A DNA stretch of 64,000 bases from Escherichia phage T4. The position numbers and the translations under genes are program-made. The DNA lies in the sequence record NC_000866.4; one strand, written 5' to 3'. A model generated the notes under the pieces. That model saw only the letters and a list, made by a program, of their open reading frames with translations. It did no database searches and had not been told where the DNA came from. Below are positions 4,320 through 50,689 of this stretch, piece after piece (position 1 is the first letter of the stretch; every line of letters starts with the position of its first letter).

Positions 4320-4714
4320 CGTGATTCCTTAACAAATTTCATAATTTCATTAAATTCATACTCAGCAAGTTTAAGCTGGTGTTCCTTTTTAATCTTTTTG
4401 CACTGGGCTTTCCAATCACGTACGCGTTTACGATAATGTCTTCCTTGATACCAGTATCCTATCCAATTTACGGGTACTAATAAAAATGGAACTACCAATG
4501 GAAGAGTTAGCATTAACATAATTATTACGCCAGAATCAATATCAGTCATAACATCTAAAACACCTCCAATAATCAATAGAATTACAAATGATATAGCTAT
4601 CACAGGACCTATTAATACATCAGTAGAAATTATCTGGCGCTTTAATTCATACTTCAAAGGTTTACTTGGAAGGTATAGTGATGGCTTTGACATATTCTCT
4701 ACATTCCTTAACAA
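4301..4714 (-). CDS. hypothetical small membrane protein (T4 e.4 position)
   Basis: 137-aa ORF with long hydrophobic stretches; start codon uncertain because the annotated start overlaps the upstream ORF by 53 nt. Confidence 0.5.
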   Translation of the reverse strand: MLRNVENMSKPSLYLPSKPLKYELKRQIISTDVLIGPVIAISFVILLIIGGVLDVMTDIDSGVIIMLMLTLPLVVPFLLVPVNWIGYWYQGRHYRKRVRDWKAQCKKIKKEHQLKLAEYEFNEIMKFVKESRCKSQS

Positions 4715-5270
4715 ATTTTTCTAGTAATAAATCACTTTCAAAATTAGGATTTTCCACTAATTTATCAAAAAGATCATCAACAATATTCAAGATATTTCTT
4801 TTACTAAGAATACGTTTATTTTCATGCTTCGTTTCAGAATCAACTATAAGAGTAAAGAAATATTTCTTTCCCTGAAATTTTACCGTAGTATCAATATAAA
4901 ATAAATTTGACTTTTGTAAATTACGTTTAAACCATGCGTCACTTAAACTATAAACACCGAGATAATCAAAATCGTCGTTTAAATAACAAACTGACCATTC
5001 AGGAGAAATGAAATCAGTAAATTCAACATCAAAATCACATGTCAATGAATGAATTGATTCAATACTGTTAATAAGTATTCCAGGACGTATTAAAGACTTT
5101 TTACCTCTGGAAAATCTTCCAGAAAGACTTTCATCAGTTTCATATGAAGAACCCCAATAATAATTACGTCCTTTTGCCATATGTTTAAGAGCATTTAGTA
5201 ATTGGTCTGGAACATCAACGTGTCTTTGGAACTCTTCAAACATTGAATTGAAATCACTTTGCATTTTCAT
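4662..5270 (-). CDS. hypothetical early protein (T4 e.5 position)
   Basis: 202-aa ORF; no motif recognised. Confidence 0.6.
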   Translation of the reverse strand: MKMQSDFNSMFEEFQRHVDVPDQLLNALKHMAKGRNYYWGSSYETDESLSGRFSRGKKSLIRPGILINSIESIHSLTCDFDVEFTDFISPEWSVCYLNDDFDYLGVYSLSDAWFKRNLQKSNLFYIDTTVKFQGKKYFFTLIVDSETKHENKRILSKRNILNIVDDLFDKLVENPNFESDLLLEKFVKECREYVKAITIPSK

Positions 5271-5290
5271 TCCTATTTACTCCAAGTAAT

Positions 5291-5306
5291 AGGGGCCGAA
5301 GCCCCT
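5291..5306 (-). other. GC-rich tetraloop RNA hairpin (AGGGGC-UUCG-GCCCCU on the transcript)
   Basis: perfect 6-bp GC stem with UUCG loop between e.6 and e.5; identical 19-mer recurs at 46166..46184. Confidence 0.5.
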
Positions 5307-5311
5307 TATCA

Positions 5312-5905
5312 TTATTTCAGAGAATTAATATATTCCTGAACATCGGCAGAGGTAGTTTCAACCCCAGAAATATTACCATTAAAGGTTTCAACTCGAGCAA
5401 GAGTATCTTCAATATCAACCTTAGTCAGTGCTGCAATTTCAACTACATCATCAGCAGTACTAATTCCAAGGGCATTTGCTGCACGAGTTTCACGGATATA
5501 TTCCAATTTAACTGCAAGTTCTTGGCGAGCATCATCTAACTCAACTACTTTCTTGGCGATTTCAATTCGCATTTCAGCATAACCATCAGCTTTAGTAGTC
5601 AGCTGTTCAGCTGTTCGACGATATAGCAAGCCGAGTTTAGCATGCATTGTTACATCTTGACCTTCGGAAAGAAGCTTGCGAATTTCACGCTCTTTTGATT
5701 CGGCCTGTTTATTCTTTTCAACAATAAGTTCACGAATACGTTTTTCTTCATTAATAGATTTAACAGAAGCAGTTTTTAGGTCTTTAATTTTATCAAGTAG
5801 TTTTGCTGCTGCAGCAGTATACTGTTCTTCAACAGATAGATTTTTAGCCATTGCAGAACCAAGTTTAGTGCGAATAAACTCAACAATTTTCTTCAGTGTG
5901 TTCAT
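5312..5905 (-). CDS. hypothetical coiled-coil protein (T4 e.6 position)
   Basis: 197-aa ORF rich in K/E/R/A with coiled-coil character; possible PspA/IM30-like fold (speculative). Confidence 0.6.
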
Positions 5906-45649: not shown

Positions 45650-45928
45650 TCAAAATGTAATTTCTAACCAATCACCATCACGCTGATCACTATTGACTTT
45701 AAAGCTGAATCCTTCTTTTCTCAGCCAATCACCAATTTCTTCTGTAATCAATTTATCACGAGCAATACAATAATAATTAAAATGTGTTTTACCTTGTTCA
45801 GCTGCTTTATTAGCAAGTTCTGAAAAATCTTTAATAAAACACTCTAGCTTAAACTGTTTACTTTTTAATGCTTTTTCGCGTAATTGATTAGCAAAAGATT
45901 CATTTTCATAAAGATCATACTGTTCCAT
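45650..45928 (-). CDS. hypothetical protein (T4 24.2 position)
   Basis: 92-aa ORF. Confidence 0.55.
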   Translation of the reverse strand: MEQYDLYENESFANQLREKALKSKQFKLECFIKDFSELANKAAEQGKTHFNYYCIARDKLITEEIGDWLRKEGFSFKVNSDQRDGDWLEITF

Positions 45929-46097
45929 TTTTCACCTTTTTATTGATATGTCTTTTTCTATAGACAACTTTTTCTCGAGCCCATAATACAGCCACTTCTT
46001 TTGCCTGTAAGTTTAATTCACGAGCAATTTCAATGAATGACTTTCCAGACTCATGAAGAGTAAACACCACAACCTCAGTTCTCATAATCAATCTCAT
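45915..46097 (-). CDS. hypothetical small protein with helix-turn-helix-like segment (T4 24.3 position)
   Basis: 60-aa ORF; SGKSFIEIARELNLQAKEV resembles an HTH. Confidence 0.45.
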   Translation of the reverse strand: MRLIMRTEVVVFTLHESGKSFIEIARELNLQAKEVAVLWAREKVVYRKRHINKKVKNGTV

Positions 46098-46165
46098 GTT
46101 ATCGAGTTGGTGCCATTATATACATCATTTTCTGATTGTGTTTTGTGTGCTTTCAAAATGAAGAA

Positions 46166-46181
46166 AGGGGCCGAAGCCCCT
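46166..46181 (-). other. GC-rich UUCG-tetraloop hairpin after hoc
   Basis: AGGGGC-CGAA-GCCCCT (plus strand); identical to the element at 5291..5306. Confidence 0.5.
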
Positions 46182-46186
46182 TATGA

Positions 46187-47317
46187 TTATGGATAGGTAT
46201 AGATGATACCAGTTTCTAAAGCAGTTTTATGAATGATGTATCCATTACGCGATTCTTGGACATCAACTTCTGGATAGTCTTTCATCATCTTCTGGAGAGT
46301 GTAACGATGCAGGTAATATTTACTATCTGGGTCGTCAGTTTTCCAATCTTTACCTTCTTCGGTCATTTTTTGGATTTCATCCATAACCCACCAACCGCAC
46401 CAGATGTAAGCTGAGCTACGGTGTGGAAGAGGATGAACATAAGGTAATTCACCTTCTGGTTCTGGAGCAACTTTAGCCGTGACTGTTACATTACCAGTTT
46501 TGGTAACGGTTACAGGGTTATAATCTGCAGCAGTAACAGTTGCAGTAACTTCAATAGTTTGACTTCCAACAGATGAGGTATCGACAGTATATACGTTAGT
46601 TGACCCTTCTACAGGAGAAGAATCTTTCTTCCATGAGTAAGTAATTTGTGCTTCTTCTGGAGCACCCGTAACATTAGCCGTAAATGTAGCCGAAGCATCT
46701 TGCTGAACATTAATAGAAGGAGGAGTCAATGTAACCTGTGGATTCATTGTCTTCTTATTAACCGTTAATGATACTTCATTAGAAGTAACGCTTAGTGCAT
46801 CATAATCTGTCGCGGTTACTTGGGCTACGCATTTAATTCTTTTTACTCCACTTGTAGTTGGAGTATAGCTAAATGTAGAGTTAGTTTCTCCACCAACTTG
46901 TGAATCATCTACATACCACTGATACGTAGCAGATGCTCCATCAGGTTGAGAAGCTAAGGCAGCAGTAAATTGAACTGGGGTTCCAATCACTCCAGCCGCA
47001 GGACTAGCAGGAGTTACGGCTAAGGTAGTCGTCTGTGTCTTATTTTTAACTGTGATAGTTGTTGTCGCTTCAGCCGTTTCCGGGCCTCCTTCAGAAAGTG
47101 TATTTGTTGCAACTACTTTAATAGTCTTTTGACCGGCAGGTCCTTTTAGTACATAACTAAAAGTTGCTTCAGCTCCATCTTGTGGAACATTATCTACGCT
47201 CCAAGCATATGTAATAGTTCCGCCTCCAGTTTGACCACTGGGTGTAGCAGTAAACTGCTTAGTTTCATCAATAACCCCTGTAGGTGTTTTAGGAGTTATA
47301 TCAACTGTAAAAGTCAT
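46187..47317 (-). CDS. hoc: highly immunogenic outer capsid protein
   Basis: 376-aa ORF with three tandem ~90-aa Ig-like repeats (each containing FTA...TYxW...G) and a distinct C-terminal domain. Confidence 0.85.
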   Translation of the reverse strand: MTFTVDITPKTPTGVIDETKQFTATPSGQTGGGTITYAWSVDNVPQDGAEATFSYVLKGPAGQKTIKVVATNTLSEGGPETAEATTTITVKNKTQTTTLAVTPASPAAGVIGTPVQFTAALASQPDGASATYQWYVDDSQVGGETNSTFSYTPTTSGVKRIKCVAQVTATDYDALSVTSNEVSLTVNKKTMNPQVTLTPPSINVQQDASATFTANVTGAPEEAQITYSWKKDSSPVEGSTNVYTVDTSSVGSQTIEVTATVTAADYNPVTVTKTGNVTVTAKVAPEPEGELPYVHPLPHRSSAYIWCGWWVMDEIQKMTEEGKDWKTDDPDSKYYLHRYTLQKMMKDYPEVDVQESRNGYIIHKTALETGIIYTYP

Positions 47318-47326
47318 AAGTTATCC

Positions 47327-48007
47327 TTATTTTAATGTTACGAAAGAAGAGTTGCGTGTTTCACGAATTAAAACTGATCCATCGCGATTAATGTAATAAA
47401 TTAAGCTAAATAAAGTTTGGTGTGCTGACGCATGTTCAAAACTAGTTGGGTGAGATTTCCAATCAGGAGTTTCAGCAATCCATTGATAAATCCACCAAGG
47501 AACAGTACAGAATCCTAGATTTTTTCCAATCAGTTGAAGATTCGGACTAAAGTTTTCCGGAAGAGTAAATACAGACGGCTTTTCAGATTCAATAATCTCA
47601 GCTACAGCCTGTTCGAATTTTTCTTCAACAAAAGGAGTATCTTCAATCAAAACATCGGTATTTTCAGGAATTTTATCCGTTTCTACTACTTCAATTTTAA
47701 TGTCAGATTTAATCGGAGAATCAATCAGAAGTGCTGCTTCTGGATTGACTTCTTCATCGTCATATTTTAATCCCTCTGCGGCATCAGCAGCATCAATTAA
47801 GTCTTTAATAGATAACCCATCAGTCTCTGGCATAGGTTCACTAGCGAGCTTCTGGAGGGCTTCTTCAATATCAACAACGATATTATCAAAAGATTTATTC
47901 TTTTTGACCTTTATACCAAACTGTTCAGCATATTCAGCTAATTTAGCTTTAGCTTCTTTGTTATCATCAAGAGCCTTCAGCTCTGCAATATAATCTTTAT
48001 CTATCAT
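47327..48007 (-). CDS. inh: inhibitor of prohead protease
   Basis: 226-aa acidic ORF between hoc and segE; assignment by position and length. Confidence 0.7.
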   Translation of the reverse strand: MIDKDYIAELKALDDNKEAKAKLAEYAEQFGIKVKKNKSFDNIVVDIEEALQKLASEPMPETDGLSIKDLIDAADAAEGLKYDDEEVNPEAALLIDSPIKSDIKIEVVETDKIPENTDVLIEDTPFVEEKFEQAVAEIIESEKPSVFTLPENFSPNLQLIGKNLGFCTVPWWIYQWIAETPDWKSHPTSFEHASAHQTLFSLIYYINRDGSVLIRETRNSSFVTLK

Positions 48008-48020
48008 AATATTTCCTCAG

Positions 48021-48028
48021 TATAAATA
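48021..48028 (+). promoter_or_regulatory. late promoter TATAAATA upstream of segE
   Basis: exact TATAAATA 29 nt upstream of the segE ATG. Confidence 0.5.
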
Positions 48029-48056
48029 TAGATATATTTATTACTCGGAAAATAGT

Positions 48057-48674
48057 ATGTACCACTTTGTATATGAAACAACAAATCTAATAAATGGTAA
48101 AAAGTATATAGGAAAGCACTCTACTGATGACTTGAATGATGGTTACCTTGGTTCCGGTAAGGCAATTCAGCAGGCTATAAAGAAATATGGTGAAAACAAT
48201 TTCTCTAGAACAATACTAAAAGAGTTTAAAACTTCCGAAGAAGCGTACATGTATGAAGAAGAAATTATAACTCCTGAACTAATAAAAAGCAAAAATTATT
48301 ATAATATGAAACCTGGTGGAATTGGTGGAATTGTTATGACTACAGATGTTATAGCAAAGATGAAAGAATCTTCCGCTAAAAGATTTGAAAACTCACCGGG
48401 CACGGTATTAGGTAAAACTTGTTATACTAATGGAACTAAAAATATTTTTATTAAACCTGGAGAACTTGTTCCAGAAGGATTTGTAAAAGGGATGGTTCAT
48501 CCTAATAGAAAGTCCAGAAAAGGATGTAAAGTCAAACCGACTACCACAGGAACTTTTTGGGTCAATAATGGCGCAATAAATAAATTAATACAACCAGACG
48601 GTATTATTCCCGACGGATTTATTAAAGGTCGTCTCATGAAAAGAGATTCTAAAGGCAAATTTAGTAAGGCATAA
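48057..48674 (+). CDS. segE: GIY-YIG homing endonuclease
   Basis: 205-aa ORF with GIY-YIG motif (KKYIGKHSTDDLNDGYLGSG). Confidence 0.85.
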   Translation: MYHFVYETTNLINGKKYIGKHSTDDLNDGYLGSGKAIQQAIKKYGENNFSRTILKEFKTSEEAYMYEEEIITPELIKSKNYYNMKPGGIGGIVMTTDVIAKMKESSAKRFENSPGTVLGKTCYTNGTKNIFIKPGELVPEGFVKGMVHPNRKSRKGCKVKPTTTGTFWVNNGAINKLIQPDGIIPDGFIKGRLMKRDSKGKFSKA

Positions 48675-48676
48675 TT

Positions 48677-50440
48677 ATGGATATTAAAGTACATTTTCAC
48701 GACTTCAGTCATGTACGCATCGATTGTGAAGAGAGCACGTTCCACGAATTAAGAGATTTCTTTTCGTTTGAGGCCGATGGATATAGATTTAATCCTCGCT
48801 TCAGATATGGCAACTGGGATGGACGAATCCGTCTTTTAGATTATAATCGTCTTCTTCCATTCGGCTTAGTCGGGCAAATTAAAAAATTCTGTGATAATTT
48901 TGGCTATAAAGCCTGGATTGACCCACAAATTAACGAAAAAGAAGAATTATCAAGAAAAGATTTTGATGAATGGCTTTCTAAATTAGAAATCTATTCAGGA
49001 AATAAAAGAATTGAACCGCACTGGTATCAAAAAGATGCAGTGTTCGAAGGATTAGTTAATCGTCGTAGAATTCTTAATCTTCCAACATCTGCAGGTAAAT
49101 CTTTAATTCAAGCTTTGCTTGCGCGATATTATTTGGAAAATTATGAAGGTAAAATTCTTATCATTGTTCCAACAACTGCTCTGACAACTCAGATGGCTGA
49201 TGACTTCGTCGACTATCGTTTATTCAGCCATGCAATGATAAAGAAAATTGGTGGCGGAGCATCAAAAGATGATAAATATAAAAATGATGCACCAGTCGTT
49301 GTTGGTACATGGCAAACTGTAGTAAAACAACCGAAAGAATGGTTCTCACAGTTTGGAATGATGATGAATGATGAATGCCATCTTGCTACAGGAAAAAGTA
49401 TTTCATCTATCATATCAGGTTTAAATAACTGCATGTTCAAATTCGGTTTGTCTGGTTCATTACGTGATGGCAAAGCCAATATCATGCAGTATGTTGGAAT
49501 GTTTGGTGAAATATTTAAACCAGTAACGACTTCTAAATTAATGGAAGATGGACAAGTAACTGAGCTAAAAATTAATAGTATTTTTCTTCGCTATCCCGAT
49601 GAGTTCACTACTAAATTAAAGGGAAAAACTTACCAAGAAGAAATAAAAATTATTACTGGGCTTAGTAAAAGAAATAAATGGATCGCTAAATTAGCTATTA
49701 AGCTTGCGCAAAAAGATGAAAACGCTTTTGTCATGTTTAAACATGTATCGCATGGTAAAGCTATTTTCGATTTAATTAAAAATGAATACGATAAAGTTTA
49801 TTACGTATCAGGGGAAGTTGATACCGAAACCCGCAATATAATGAAAACCTTAGCTGAAAATGGTAAAGGAATAATTATAGTAGCTAGTTATGGTGTATTT
49901 TCTACTGGTATTTCAGTTAAAAATCTGCATCACGTTGTTTTAGCGCACGGTGTTAAATCAAAAATCATTGTATTACAAACAATCGGTCGTGTATTACGTA
50001 AGCATGGTTCTAAGACAATAGCAACAGTCTGGGACCTCATAGATAGCGCAGGCGTCAAGCCAAAATCTGCTAATACGAAAAAGAAATATGTTCATTTGAA
50101 CTATCTTTTAAAACACGGCATTGATCGTATTCAGCGCTACGCAGATGAAAAATTTAATTACGTAATGAAAACAGTTAATTTAATAAGCTTCGGCCCTTTG
50201 GAGAAAAAGATGTTACTAGAATTTAAACAATTTCTTTATGAAGCTTCTATTGATGAATTTATGGGTAAAATTGCCTCTTGTCAAACATTAGAAGGTTTAG
50301 AAGAACTTGAAGCTTATTATAAGAAAAGAGTCAAAGAAACTGAATTAAAAGATACTGATGACATCTCTGTGAGAGATGCTTTGGCAGGAAAAAGAGCTGA
50401 ATTAGAAGATTCAGACGATGAAGTAGAAGAAAGCTTTTAA
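48677..50440 (+). CDS. uvsW: SF2 DNA helicase (recombination and repair)
   Basis: 587-aa ORF; Walker A PTSAGKS, DExH box DECH; continuous through the region once annotated as a separate small downstream ORF. Confidence 0.9.
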   Translation: MDIKVHFHDFSHVRIDCEESTFHELRDFFSFEADGYRFNPRFRYGNWDGRIRLLDYNRLLPFGLVGQIKKFCDNFGYKAWIDPQINEKEELSRKDFDEWLSKLEIYSGNKRIEPHWYQKDAVFEGLVNRRRILNLPTSAGKSLIQALLARYYLENYEGKILIIVPTTALTTQMADDFVDYRLFSHAMIKKIGGGASKDDKYKNDAPVVVGTWQTVVKQPKEWFSQFGMMMNDECHLATGKSISSIISGLNNCMFKFGLSGSLRDGKANIMQYVGMFGEIFKPVTTSKLMEDGQVTELKINSIFLRYPDEFTTKLKGKTYQEEIKIITGLSKRNKWIAKLAIKLAQKDENAFVMFKHVSHGKAIFDLIKNEYDKVYYVSGEVDTETRNIMKTLAENGKGIIIVASYGVFSTGISVKNLHHVVLAHGVKSKIIVLQTIGRVLRKHGSKTIATVWDLIDSAGVKPKSANTKKKYVHLNYLLKHGIDRIQRYADEKFNYVMKTVNLISFGPLEKKMLLEFKQFLYEASIDEFMGKIASCQTLEGLEELEAYYKKRVKETELKDTDDISVRDALAGKRAELEDSDDEVEESF

Positions 50441-50495
50441 ATTAAAAAAGGCCCAACCAAAAAGGAAGGGCCAAAACTATAGACTAAAGGTCACA

Positions 50496-50663
50496 CTATA
50501 GCAAAAGTTGTGTTTCATTTAATTGTTCTTCCGAACTTTCTGAAACTGGTAGTTCTTTAATGTAATTATAGCAAGGCCCAGGATGTACAGGACCTTTGTC
50601 TGTTTCAACAACCAATGCAGAATCGATTGGAGTTTTACAGACAACACAAATCTTATCTGACAT
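50496..50663 (-). CDS. small Cys-containing protein, possible zinc ribbon (T4 uvsY.-2 position)
   Basis: 55-aa ORF MSDKICVVCKTPIDSALVVETDKGPVHPGPCYNY... below the track length cut-off; CxxC plus a third Cys. Confidence 0.4.
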   Translation of the reverse strand: MSDKICVVCKTPIDSALVVETDKGPVHPGPCYNYIKELPVSESSEEQLNETQLLL

Positions 50664-50689
50664 GATTGTCTCCTCTGAATTATATCTAT

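Follow-up and report, generated by a model that had tools for sequence, protein, structure and literature searches.

The hoc gene of bacteriophage T4 encodes three homologous Ig-like domains and a capsid anchor, and its middle domain varies in copy number among relatives

The DNA analysed was a stretch of 64,000 nucleotides from Escherichia phage T4 (NC_000866.4), referred to below as the window. A single minus-strand open reading frame (ORF) corresponds exactly to the whole interval from 46187 to 47317 of the window, where a sequence-only reading had named the gene hoc and described three tandem Ig-like repeats in its product. The gene and the signals immediately adjacent to it were as follows.

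46187..47317, minus strand: hoc coding sequence, 376 codons and a TAA stop at 46187..46189, from the ORF list
47324..47328, minus strand: Shine-Dalgarno-like AAGGA, 6 nt upstream of the hoc ATG and overlapping the TAA stop of inh, read from the sequence
46165..46182, minus strand: intrinsic-terminator-like hairpin AAGGGGC-UUCG-GCCCCUU followed by UCUUCAUUUU, starting 5 nt past the hoc stop, from a terminator scan

The name given to the gene was borne out by DNA and protein comparisons. The DNA was 100% identical over all 1131 nt to ten T4 records (T4, RB55 and RB59) and 99.9% identical to two further records, and all 376 residues of the protein were those of the Hoc chains in PDB entries 5vf3 (chain Z), 8t1x, 8t9r, 9mkb and 9mof. 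The full-length protein matched PHROG 1149, 'Hoc-like head decoration', with an E value of 1.4e-124, the neighbours (uvsW, segE, inh, hoc, 24.3, 24.2, rnlB, gp24) were those of T4, and the order uvsW-segE-inh-hoc-24.2-rnlB-gp24 agreed with the annotated T4 record. Since DNA and protein identity, PHROG class and neighbours all match T4, the interval is hoc of T4 or of a strain that is laboratory-identical at this locus. No difference was noted from T4 Hoc, the highly immunogenic outer capsid protein (5vf3_Z, 8t1x, 8t9r), so that the two are the same gene, and nothing was found that contradicted this identification. A position directly 3' of inh in the late head-gene region was shared by hoc of T4, PG7, PSTCR6, fHyAci03, Gravdalen, UGKSEcP1 and pJBK. 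Two antisense ORFs inside hoc, at 46229..46414 (+) and 47180..47335 (+), were rejected as spurious, being enclosed wholly by a gene whose function is established.

On the hoc strand, 9 nt separate the stop of inh, which ends at 47327, from the ATG of hoc, which begins at 47317. A search of the minus strand from 47318 to 50686 revealed no exact late-promoter box (TATAAATA) upstream of hoc and inh, and a match at 7 of 8 positions (AATAAATA) was noted about 30 nt upstream of the inh ATG. Because the exact box is absent upstream on this strand, hoc is likely to be co-transcribed with inh. The hairpin 3' of hoc, with its UUCG tetraloop and U-rich tail, gave a predicted RNA folding energy of -12.6 kcal/mol (z -2.5) and is likely to act as an intrinsic terminator or as an RNA-stabilising hairpin. 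UUCG-type hairpins of this kind are common in T4.

Other features of the neighbourhood were also noted. The 60-aa ORF at 45915..46097 (-) is T4 24.3, which is unannotated in T4 record MT984581.1 and the counterparts of which in relatives carry Pfam DUF2774. Between uvsW and inh, T4 and phage BW-1 both have the gene for the GIY-YIG homing endonuclease SegE, which in the window occupies 48057..48674 (+) and has an exact TATAAATA box in front of it at 48021..48028 (+). No such gene is present between uvsW and inh in UGKSEcP1, in pJBK or in the ERZ27280760 contig.

Within hoc, the following domains and units were delimited.

47033..47317, minus strand: Ig-like repeat 1, aa 1-95, distal tip of the fibre, from the motif period and Smith-Waterman comparison with repeats 2 and 3 (z 12-13)
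46748..47032, minus strand: Ig-like repeat 2, aa 96-190, Pfam PKD, strands within aa 99-187
46463..46747, minus strand: Ig-like repeat 3, aa 191-285, Pfam I-set, strands within aa 194-280
46190..46462, minus strand: C-terminal capsid-binding domain, aa 286-376, unrelated to the repeats, PHROG 21694
46751..47038, minus strand: middle-repeat cassette of 288 nt (repeat 2 reframed), aa 94-189, present in one, two or three tandem copies in relatives

It is virtually certain that hoc of T4 encodes three homologous Ig-like domains and a capsid anchor and that the copy number of its middle cassette changes in relatives. The domain layout, the repeats and the capsid anchor are already known from the literature; the ladder of cassette copy numbers described below is a modest descriptive addition.

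The repeated organisation of the protein was evident from two short motifs, each with an exact period of 95 residues. The tripeptide FTA occurs in Hoc three times only, at residues 22, 117 and 212, as does TY.W, at residues 36, 131 and 226; the gap from FTA to TY is 11 residues, and in each repeat a Gly follows the Trp of TY.W by 8-9 residues. The pattern FTA...TY.W...G that had been reported thus recurs in all three repeats, its spacing as then written being schematic only, and the repeats earlier put at about 90 residues number three as stated but have a unit of 95. A self-blastp of whole Hoc returned the diagonal alone, and unit-against-unit Smith-Waterman alignment with shuffled controls was used instead. 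Pairwise scores of the 95-aa units were 111-114 as compared with 33-35 ± 6.3 in the shuffles (z 12.2-12.9), and none of 2000 composition-preserving shuffles reached the observed score, so that the self-alignment proposed as a check of the repeats came out clearly in their favour. When each unit was aligned with the C-terminal 91 residues, scores were at the level of the shuffles (z -0.3 to 0.6). A scan of all in-frame offsets placed 285 nt at the top both for amino acids (22.6% identity against a background of 9.0%, z 5.3) and for DNA (42.1% against 31.6%, z 4.6).

Similarity between the repeats of T4 itself is low: ungapped identity is only 18-26% at the protein level, and in-register nucleotide identity is 36-42%. 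Self-blastn of hoc revealed no DNA repeat with a period of about 285 nt, and Tandem Repeats Finder reported no array of that period in the T4 gene. The longest exact DNA match between repeats was 9 nt in register and 10 nt at any offset, which is no longer than the matches in codon-shuffled controls (mean 10.3, maximum 14). The nucleotide self-comparison of 46187..47317 that had been suggested alongside the protein one therefore shows no repeat, and a dot-plot of it would be blank.

The fold of the repeats was assessed by profile search and by structure prediction. Scanned alone, repeat 2 matched Pfam PKD (PF00801) with 27.2 bits against a gathering threshold of 23.5, with repeats 1 and 3 below it, and repeat 3 matched Pfam I-set (PF07679) with 26.5 bits against a threshold of 23.7, with repeats 1 and 2 below it; no Ig or PKD match was found for repeat 1 when scanned alone against Pfam. 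Because the three repeats are homologous to one another, the split between PKD and I-set means borderline matches, not different origins, and because repeat 1 is without a Pfam match while repeats 2 and 3 fall in different families, the repeats cannot be placed securely in any one Ig subfamily. An AlphaFold2 model from the single sequence contained three separate all-beta domains, with strands within aa 4-91, 99-187 and 194-280 and pLDDT mostly 75-94 (about 80-88 in repeat 1 and about 90-94 in repeat 3). The best match of this model in a Foldseek search of the PDB was 3shs, the Ig domains of RB49 Hoc (E 3.9e-11), with multi-Ig chains such as those of Fc-gamma-RI and NCAM Ig1-3 ranking next; phmmer against the PDB at E <= 0.01 did not retrieve 3shs, which was recovered by fold comparison. 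The description of the repeats as Ig-like was thereby upheld, by the two Pfam matches above cut-off and by RB49 Hoc as best structural match, although the profile search proposed for them succeeded for repeats 2 and 3 and left repeat 1 unmatched. The Trp of TY.W is kept in all three repeats, and the Cys pair of a classical immunoglobulin domain was not found in any of them, repeats 1 and 3 being without Cys and repeat 2 having one (KCVAQV). No intradomain disulfide is possible, and 'Ig-like fold' is therefore used here in preference to 'immunoglobulin domain'.

RB49 Hoc resembles T4 Hoc in having three Ig-like domains followed by a capsid-binding domain and differs from it in sequence, identity being only about 16% in the structural alignment and about 22% according to PMC10385173; a hidden Markov model (HMM) of the T4 repeats clearly recognises the first RB49-type repeat only. 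The RB49-like phage G2494 has a 404-aa Hoc homologue, likewise located after inh. Decoration proteins of other phages, namely pb10 of T5 and those of N4 and Sf14, also display Ig-like domains from hexamer centres and are dispensable, like Hoc, whereas their capsid anchors are different and are not homologous to the C-terminal domain of Hoc. T5 pb10 (5lxk), which has a single Ig-like domain as opposed to the three of T4 Hoc, gave a weak sequence match to T4 repeat 3 (E 0.007).

That the C-terminal domain is unlike the repeats, as the sequence-only reading had proposed, was confirmed by its shuffle-level alignment scores, by its own PHROG and by a distinct fold in cryo-EM; its binding to the capsid, then a presumption, is experimentally established for this exact protein (PMC10385173). 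Residues 312-376 matched PHROG 21694, also 'Hoc-like head decoration', with an E value of 6.4e-42. According to Fokine et al. (2023, PMC10385173), Hoc consists of four domains, three Ig-like and one C-terminal, the last of which genetics had shown to bind the capsid. In the cryo-EM structure this domain is a four-stranded sheet under a three-helix bundle, located off-centre on the gp23* hexamer, with one Hoc per hexamer and 155 per head (PMC10385173), and density at hexamer centres persisting after deletion of hoc is excluded by published work on the identical sequence. Hoc is a monomeric fibre of four domains, of which the unrelated 91-residue alpha/beta domain anchors one molecule to the centre of every gp23* hexamer once the capsid has expanded, so that a head carries up to 155 copies.

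The C-terminal domain was not folded by the single-sequence model (pLDDT below 50). It is the most conserved part of Hoc: across 73 homologues with a length of 376 aa, identity to T4 averaged 98% for this domain and 84%, 90% and 87% for repeats 1, 2 and 3, respectively. A tblastn search of phage genomes with the domain matched 1384 phage records. A protein-homologue search with the domain alone yielded only 11 short fragments, unusable as a survey of length, and the full-length protein was used as query for that purpose.

Hoc joins the head once the capsid has expanded, and laboratory growth does not require it (PMC3012670). The Ig-like domains project about 180 Angstrom from the head, and according to the literature they make weak, multivalent contacts with glycans of mucins and bacterial surfaces. 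With the D246N change in repeat 3, the affinity of Hoc for fucosylated glycans is altered and persistence in a gut-on-a-chip is improved (PMC9271167), and a MUC2-binding pocket has been placed in domain 1 of the 87.8% identical Hoc of phiPNJ-6 (PMC11150434). Binding of the exposed domains to bacterial surfaces has also been proposed (PMC10385173), as has pH-dependent clustering and dispersion of virions. The literature is divided on whether Hoc serves in adherence to mucus, in binding to bacterial surfaces or in pH-dependent clustering, and the sequence alone does not discriminate between these functions. The 'bacteriophage adherence to mucus' model rests on Hoc, which is also the standard antigen-display scaffold on T4 nanoparticle vaccines.

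Differences in the number of Ig-like domains were noted among close relatives of T4. Hoc lengths in the best 120 homologue clusters fell into classes of 376-378 aa (81 clusters), 468-472 aa (30) and 567-570 aa (9), which contain three, four and five FTA...Y.W anchors, respectively, spaced 95/96/96/95. The extra material was always one or two more copies of the middle repeat as an exact unit of 96 aa (288 nt) running from TQTTTLAVTP to SLTVNKK. Thus, pJBK, BF15 and moskry (472 aa) and UGKSEcP1 (568 aa) carry at the same gene position as T4 hoc two or three tandem middle cassettes as opposed to the one in T4. Tandem Repeats Finder reported a period of 288 with 2.1 copies for phage pJBK and 3.1 copies for phage UGKSEcP1, at 76-78% matches, and in phage moskry the repeat within the 1419-nt hoc was annotated explicitly by the depositor. 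Between cassette copies inside one gene, DNA identity was 73-79% and the exact tracts shared in register measured 15-26 nt; the highest amino acid identity between copies of one protein was 85%. Repeat 1, and repeat 3 with the C-terminal portion, were 83-91% identical in nucleotides to T4 in the four- and five-repeat relatives.

With the T4 288-nt cassette as query, 890 places were matched in 615 phage records. Of 60 records sampled with an even spread, 34 had one copy, 24 had two and 2 had three, i.e., about 43% had two or more. Roughly four in ten sequenced close relatives therefore have a Hoc with one or two extra middle domains, and fibres of three, four or five Ig-like domains are tolerated in nature on essentially one anchor. 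It has been stated in general terms that Hoc domains vary in number and arrangement among T4-like phages (PMC10385173, PMC11150434), and no explicit description of four- or five-domain Hoc in the close relatives of T4 was found in the searchable literature. The natural variation in length bears on the engineering of longer display arms and on comparisons of mucus binding between therapeutic T4-like phages.

The cassettes belong to three subtypes, A, B and C, at about 85% amino acid identity, and T4 hoc has a single B. The arrays seen were B (55), A (27), A-B (22), A-B-C (4), A-C (3), A-B-A (2), A-A-C (2), A-A (2), B-C (1) and C (1). Among single-cassette proteins, subtype A or B was almost unlinked from the flanking domains, as the following mean identities indicate.

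Repeat 1: 87.7% within subtype, 85.9% between subtypes
Repeat 2 (cassette): 91.5% within, 83.7% between
Repeat 3: 95.4% within, 93.9% between
C-terminal domain: 98.6% within, 98.6% between

In the wider family, the repeats of homologues occupying the inh-hoc position were tallied by means of an HMM of the T4 repeats, with the following results.

One repeat: Erwinia phage Gravdalen (179 aa) and Aeromonas phage avDM1 (180 aa)
Two repeats: Klebsiella phage Roth78 (280 aa)
Three repeats: Providencia PSTCR6, Acinetobacter fHyAci03 and Klebsiella PMBT1

Up to ten Ig-like domains have been reported in Hoc proteins (PMC10385173), and the Ig-like part of Hoc is modular in the wider family. T4 repeat 1 was nearest to repeat 1 of Roth78 and PG7 (51-52%) and T4 repeat 3 to repeat 3 of PG7 (60%). 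Since each is closest to the repeat at the same position in other genera, the triplication predates these genera. The three 95-residue Ig-like domains stem from ancient tandem duplication.

Affinities of another kind were noted in Roth78 hoc (4440..5282 of that locus). Its repeat 1 is 86% identical to repeat 1 of PG7 and its repeat 2 is closest (51%) to repeat 1 of PSTCR6, not to the repeat at the same position in T4 or PG7, which suggests domain shuffling between genera.

Whether the number of repeats can change by recombination between them, as the sequence-only reading had supposed for such decoration proteins, was considered separately for T4 and for its relatives, and the answer differs. 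The variation in relatives fits the supposition and is confined to the middle copies, which are 73-79% identical; the repeats of T4 itself are too diverged. Within T4 hoc, in-register nucleotide identity is 36-42% and the longest exact tract in register is 9 nt, as compared with a 288-nt period and copy numbers of one, two and three for the middle cassette of the relatives. Because no shared DNA tract is longer than 9-10 nt, recombination among the three resident repeats of T4 does not appear plausible. Relatives with four or five repeats have, in their first cassette, exact matches of 43-46 nt to the T4 cassette that are out of register, so that a mixed infection could change the repeat number of T4. 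Copy number (one to three) has changed repeatedly, most probably by in-register unequal homologous recombination between cassettes, which would take place during replication or mixed infection; T4 has the one-cassette state. Comparative patterns argue strongly for this mechanism because the unit length is exact, the copies are tandem and in phase, several array orders exist and the cassette is decoupled from its flanks. With only 73-79% DNA identity between the copies of one gene, no very recent duplication was caught.

Before this reading is taken further, the reality of the repeats and of their extra copies has to be considered. That the apparent repeats reflect merely the composition of Thr/Val/Ala-rich beta-strand sequence, with no true internal homology, would agree with the abundance of T, V, A and S in the region, with the self-blastp that returned its diagonal only and with the lack of a repeat at the DNA level. 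The shuffles, however, preserve composition and yet all 2000 were exceeded by the observed Smith-Waterman scores (z 12-13), two motifs share the exact 95-aa period with 285 nt as top in-frame offset, the structure model has three separate beta-sandwich domains with boundaries matching that period and the HMM from the three T4 units recovers the same units in distant Hoc proteins. Shuffles, model and HMM matches together ruled out a compositional origin, to which we attach practically no weight. An equally negligible probability is given to the view that the 472- and 568-aa forms are artefacts of assembly or annotation and that every close relative has in truth three repeats. Genes with tandem repeats are well known to be mis-assembled from short reads, but the copies concerned differ at 21-27% of nucleotides and cannot be collapsed or expanded by an assembler; moreover, the longer forms recur in numerous complete genomes and metagenomes of independent origin (clusters with 167, 72, 68 and 58 members) and in about 43% of the spread sample of phage records, with all reading frames intact and with the repeat annotated in moskry. 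Copy divergence, cluster sizes and the 60-record census ruled out this origin of the longer Hoc.

A more serious competitor, in our judgement unlikely though far from negligible, is that differences in repeat number arise mainly by gain or loss of whole foreign domains, through illegitimate recombination or horizontal exchange of modules, rather than by homologous recombination within one gene. Repeats do look shuffled between genera, as for repeat 2 of Roth78 with its closest match (51%) in repeat 1 of PSTCR6; some middle cassettes are very divergent (33-56% to their neighbours in P0049 and P0052), some phages have an N-terminal capsid-binding domain or a fusion to a lipase-family (GDSL) domain, and the repeats of T4 itself are without DNA homology to each other. 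Among close relatives, however, the extra units are all of the repeat-2 type, exactly 288 nt long, in register and in tandem, and are 73-79% identical in nucleotides to their neighbours, a constancy of type, length and phase that foreign insertions would be unlikely to hold. Homologous exchange and module acquisition probably both operate, at different evolutionary distances.

A possible trace of gene conversion was noted in T4 itself. Of the 19 informative sites in the T4 cassette, 16 are of subtype B and the remaining three form one cluster of subtype A, a patch of 6 nt at cassette positions 244-249 with CTAAGC (Leu-Ser) where B has AAGGAA or similar (Lys-Glu), so that T4 encodes ALSV where subtype B has AKEV. 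This patch is suggestive of a short gene-conversion tract from another subtype and is too short for proof. The length polymorphism of the middle domain is itself a plain observation. A wider interpretation, which we put forward tentatively and with somewhat less than even confidence, is that the middle Ig-like domain is a recombination-driven length polymorphism in which the 288-nt cassette, with its three subtypes, is repeatedly gained, lost and reshuffled through unequal exchange in mixed infections, tuning reach or ligands, with T4 Hoc as the shortest allele. If so, cassette number may tune the reach of the fibre from the capsid or the ligands that it presents.

Unusual arrangements of hoc were noted in three other phages. 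In the Citrobacter phage IME-CF2 (4977..5480 of the locus), the capsid-binding domain is N-terminal in a 167-aa protein and is followed by an apparent Ig-like tail. In PMBT1, a stand-alone capsid-binding domain of 91 aa (5236..5511) comes right after the 353-aa three-repeat Hoc, which is annotated 'tail protein'. In the Enterobacter phage PG7 (NC_023561.1; 4157..5279 of the locus), hoc is represented by two overlapping coding sequences, one of 146 aa with repeat 1 and the first half of repeat 2 and one of 233 aa with the second half of repeat 2, repeat 3 and the C-terminal domain. The 233-aa product has been described as a Hoc with one Ig domain (PMC10385173); from its reading frames, PG7 hoc looks like a three-repeat gene broken by a one-base frameshift near ...CCAGCTAAAACAATT..., either a pseudogene or a sequencing error.
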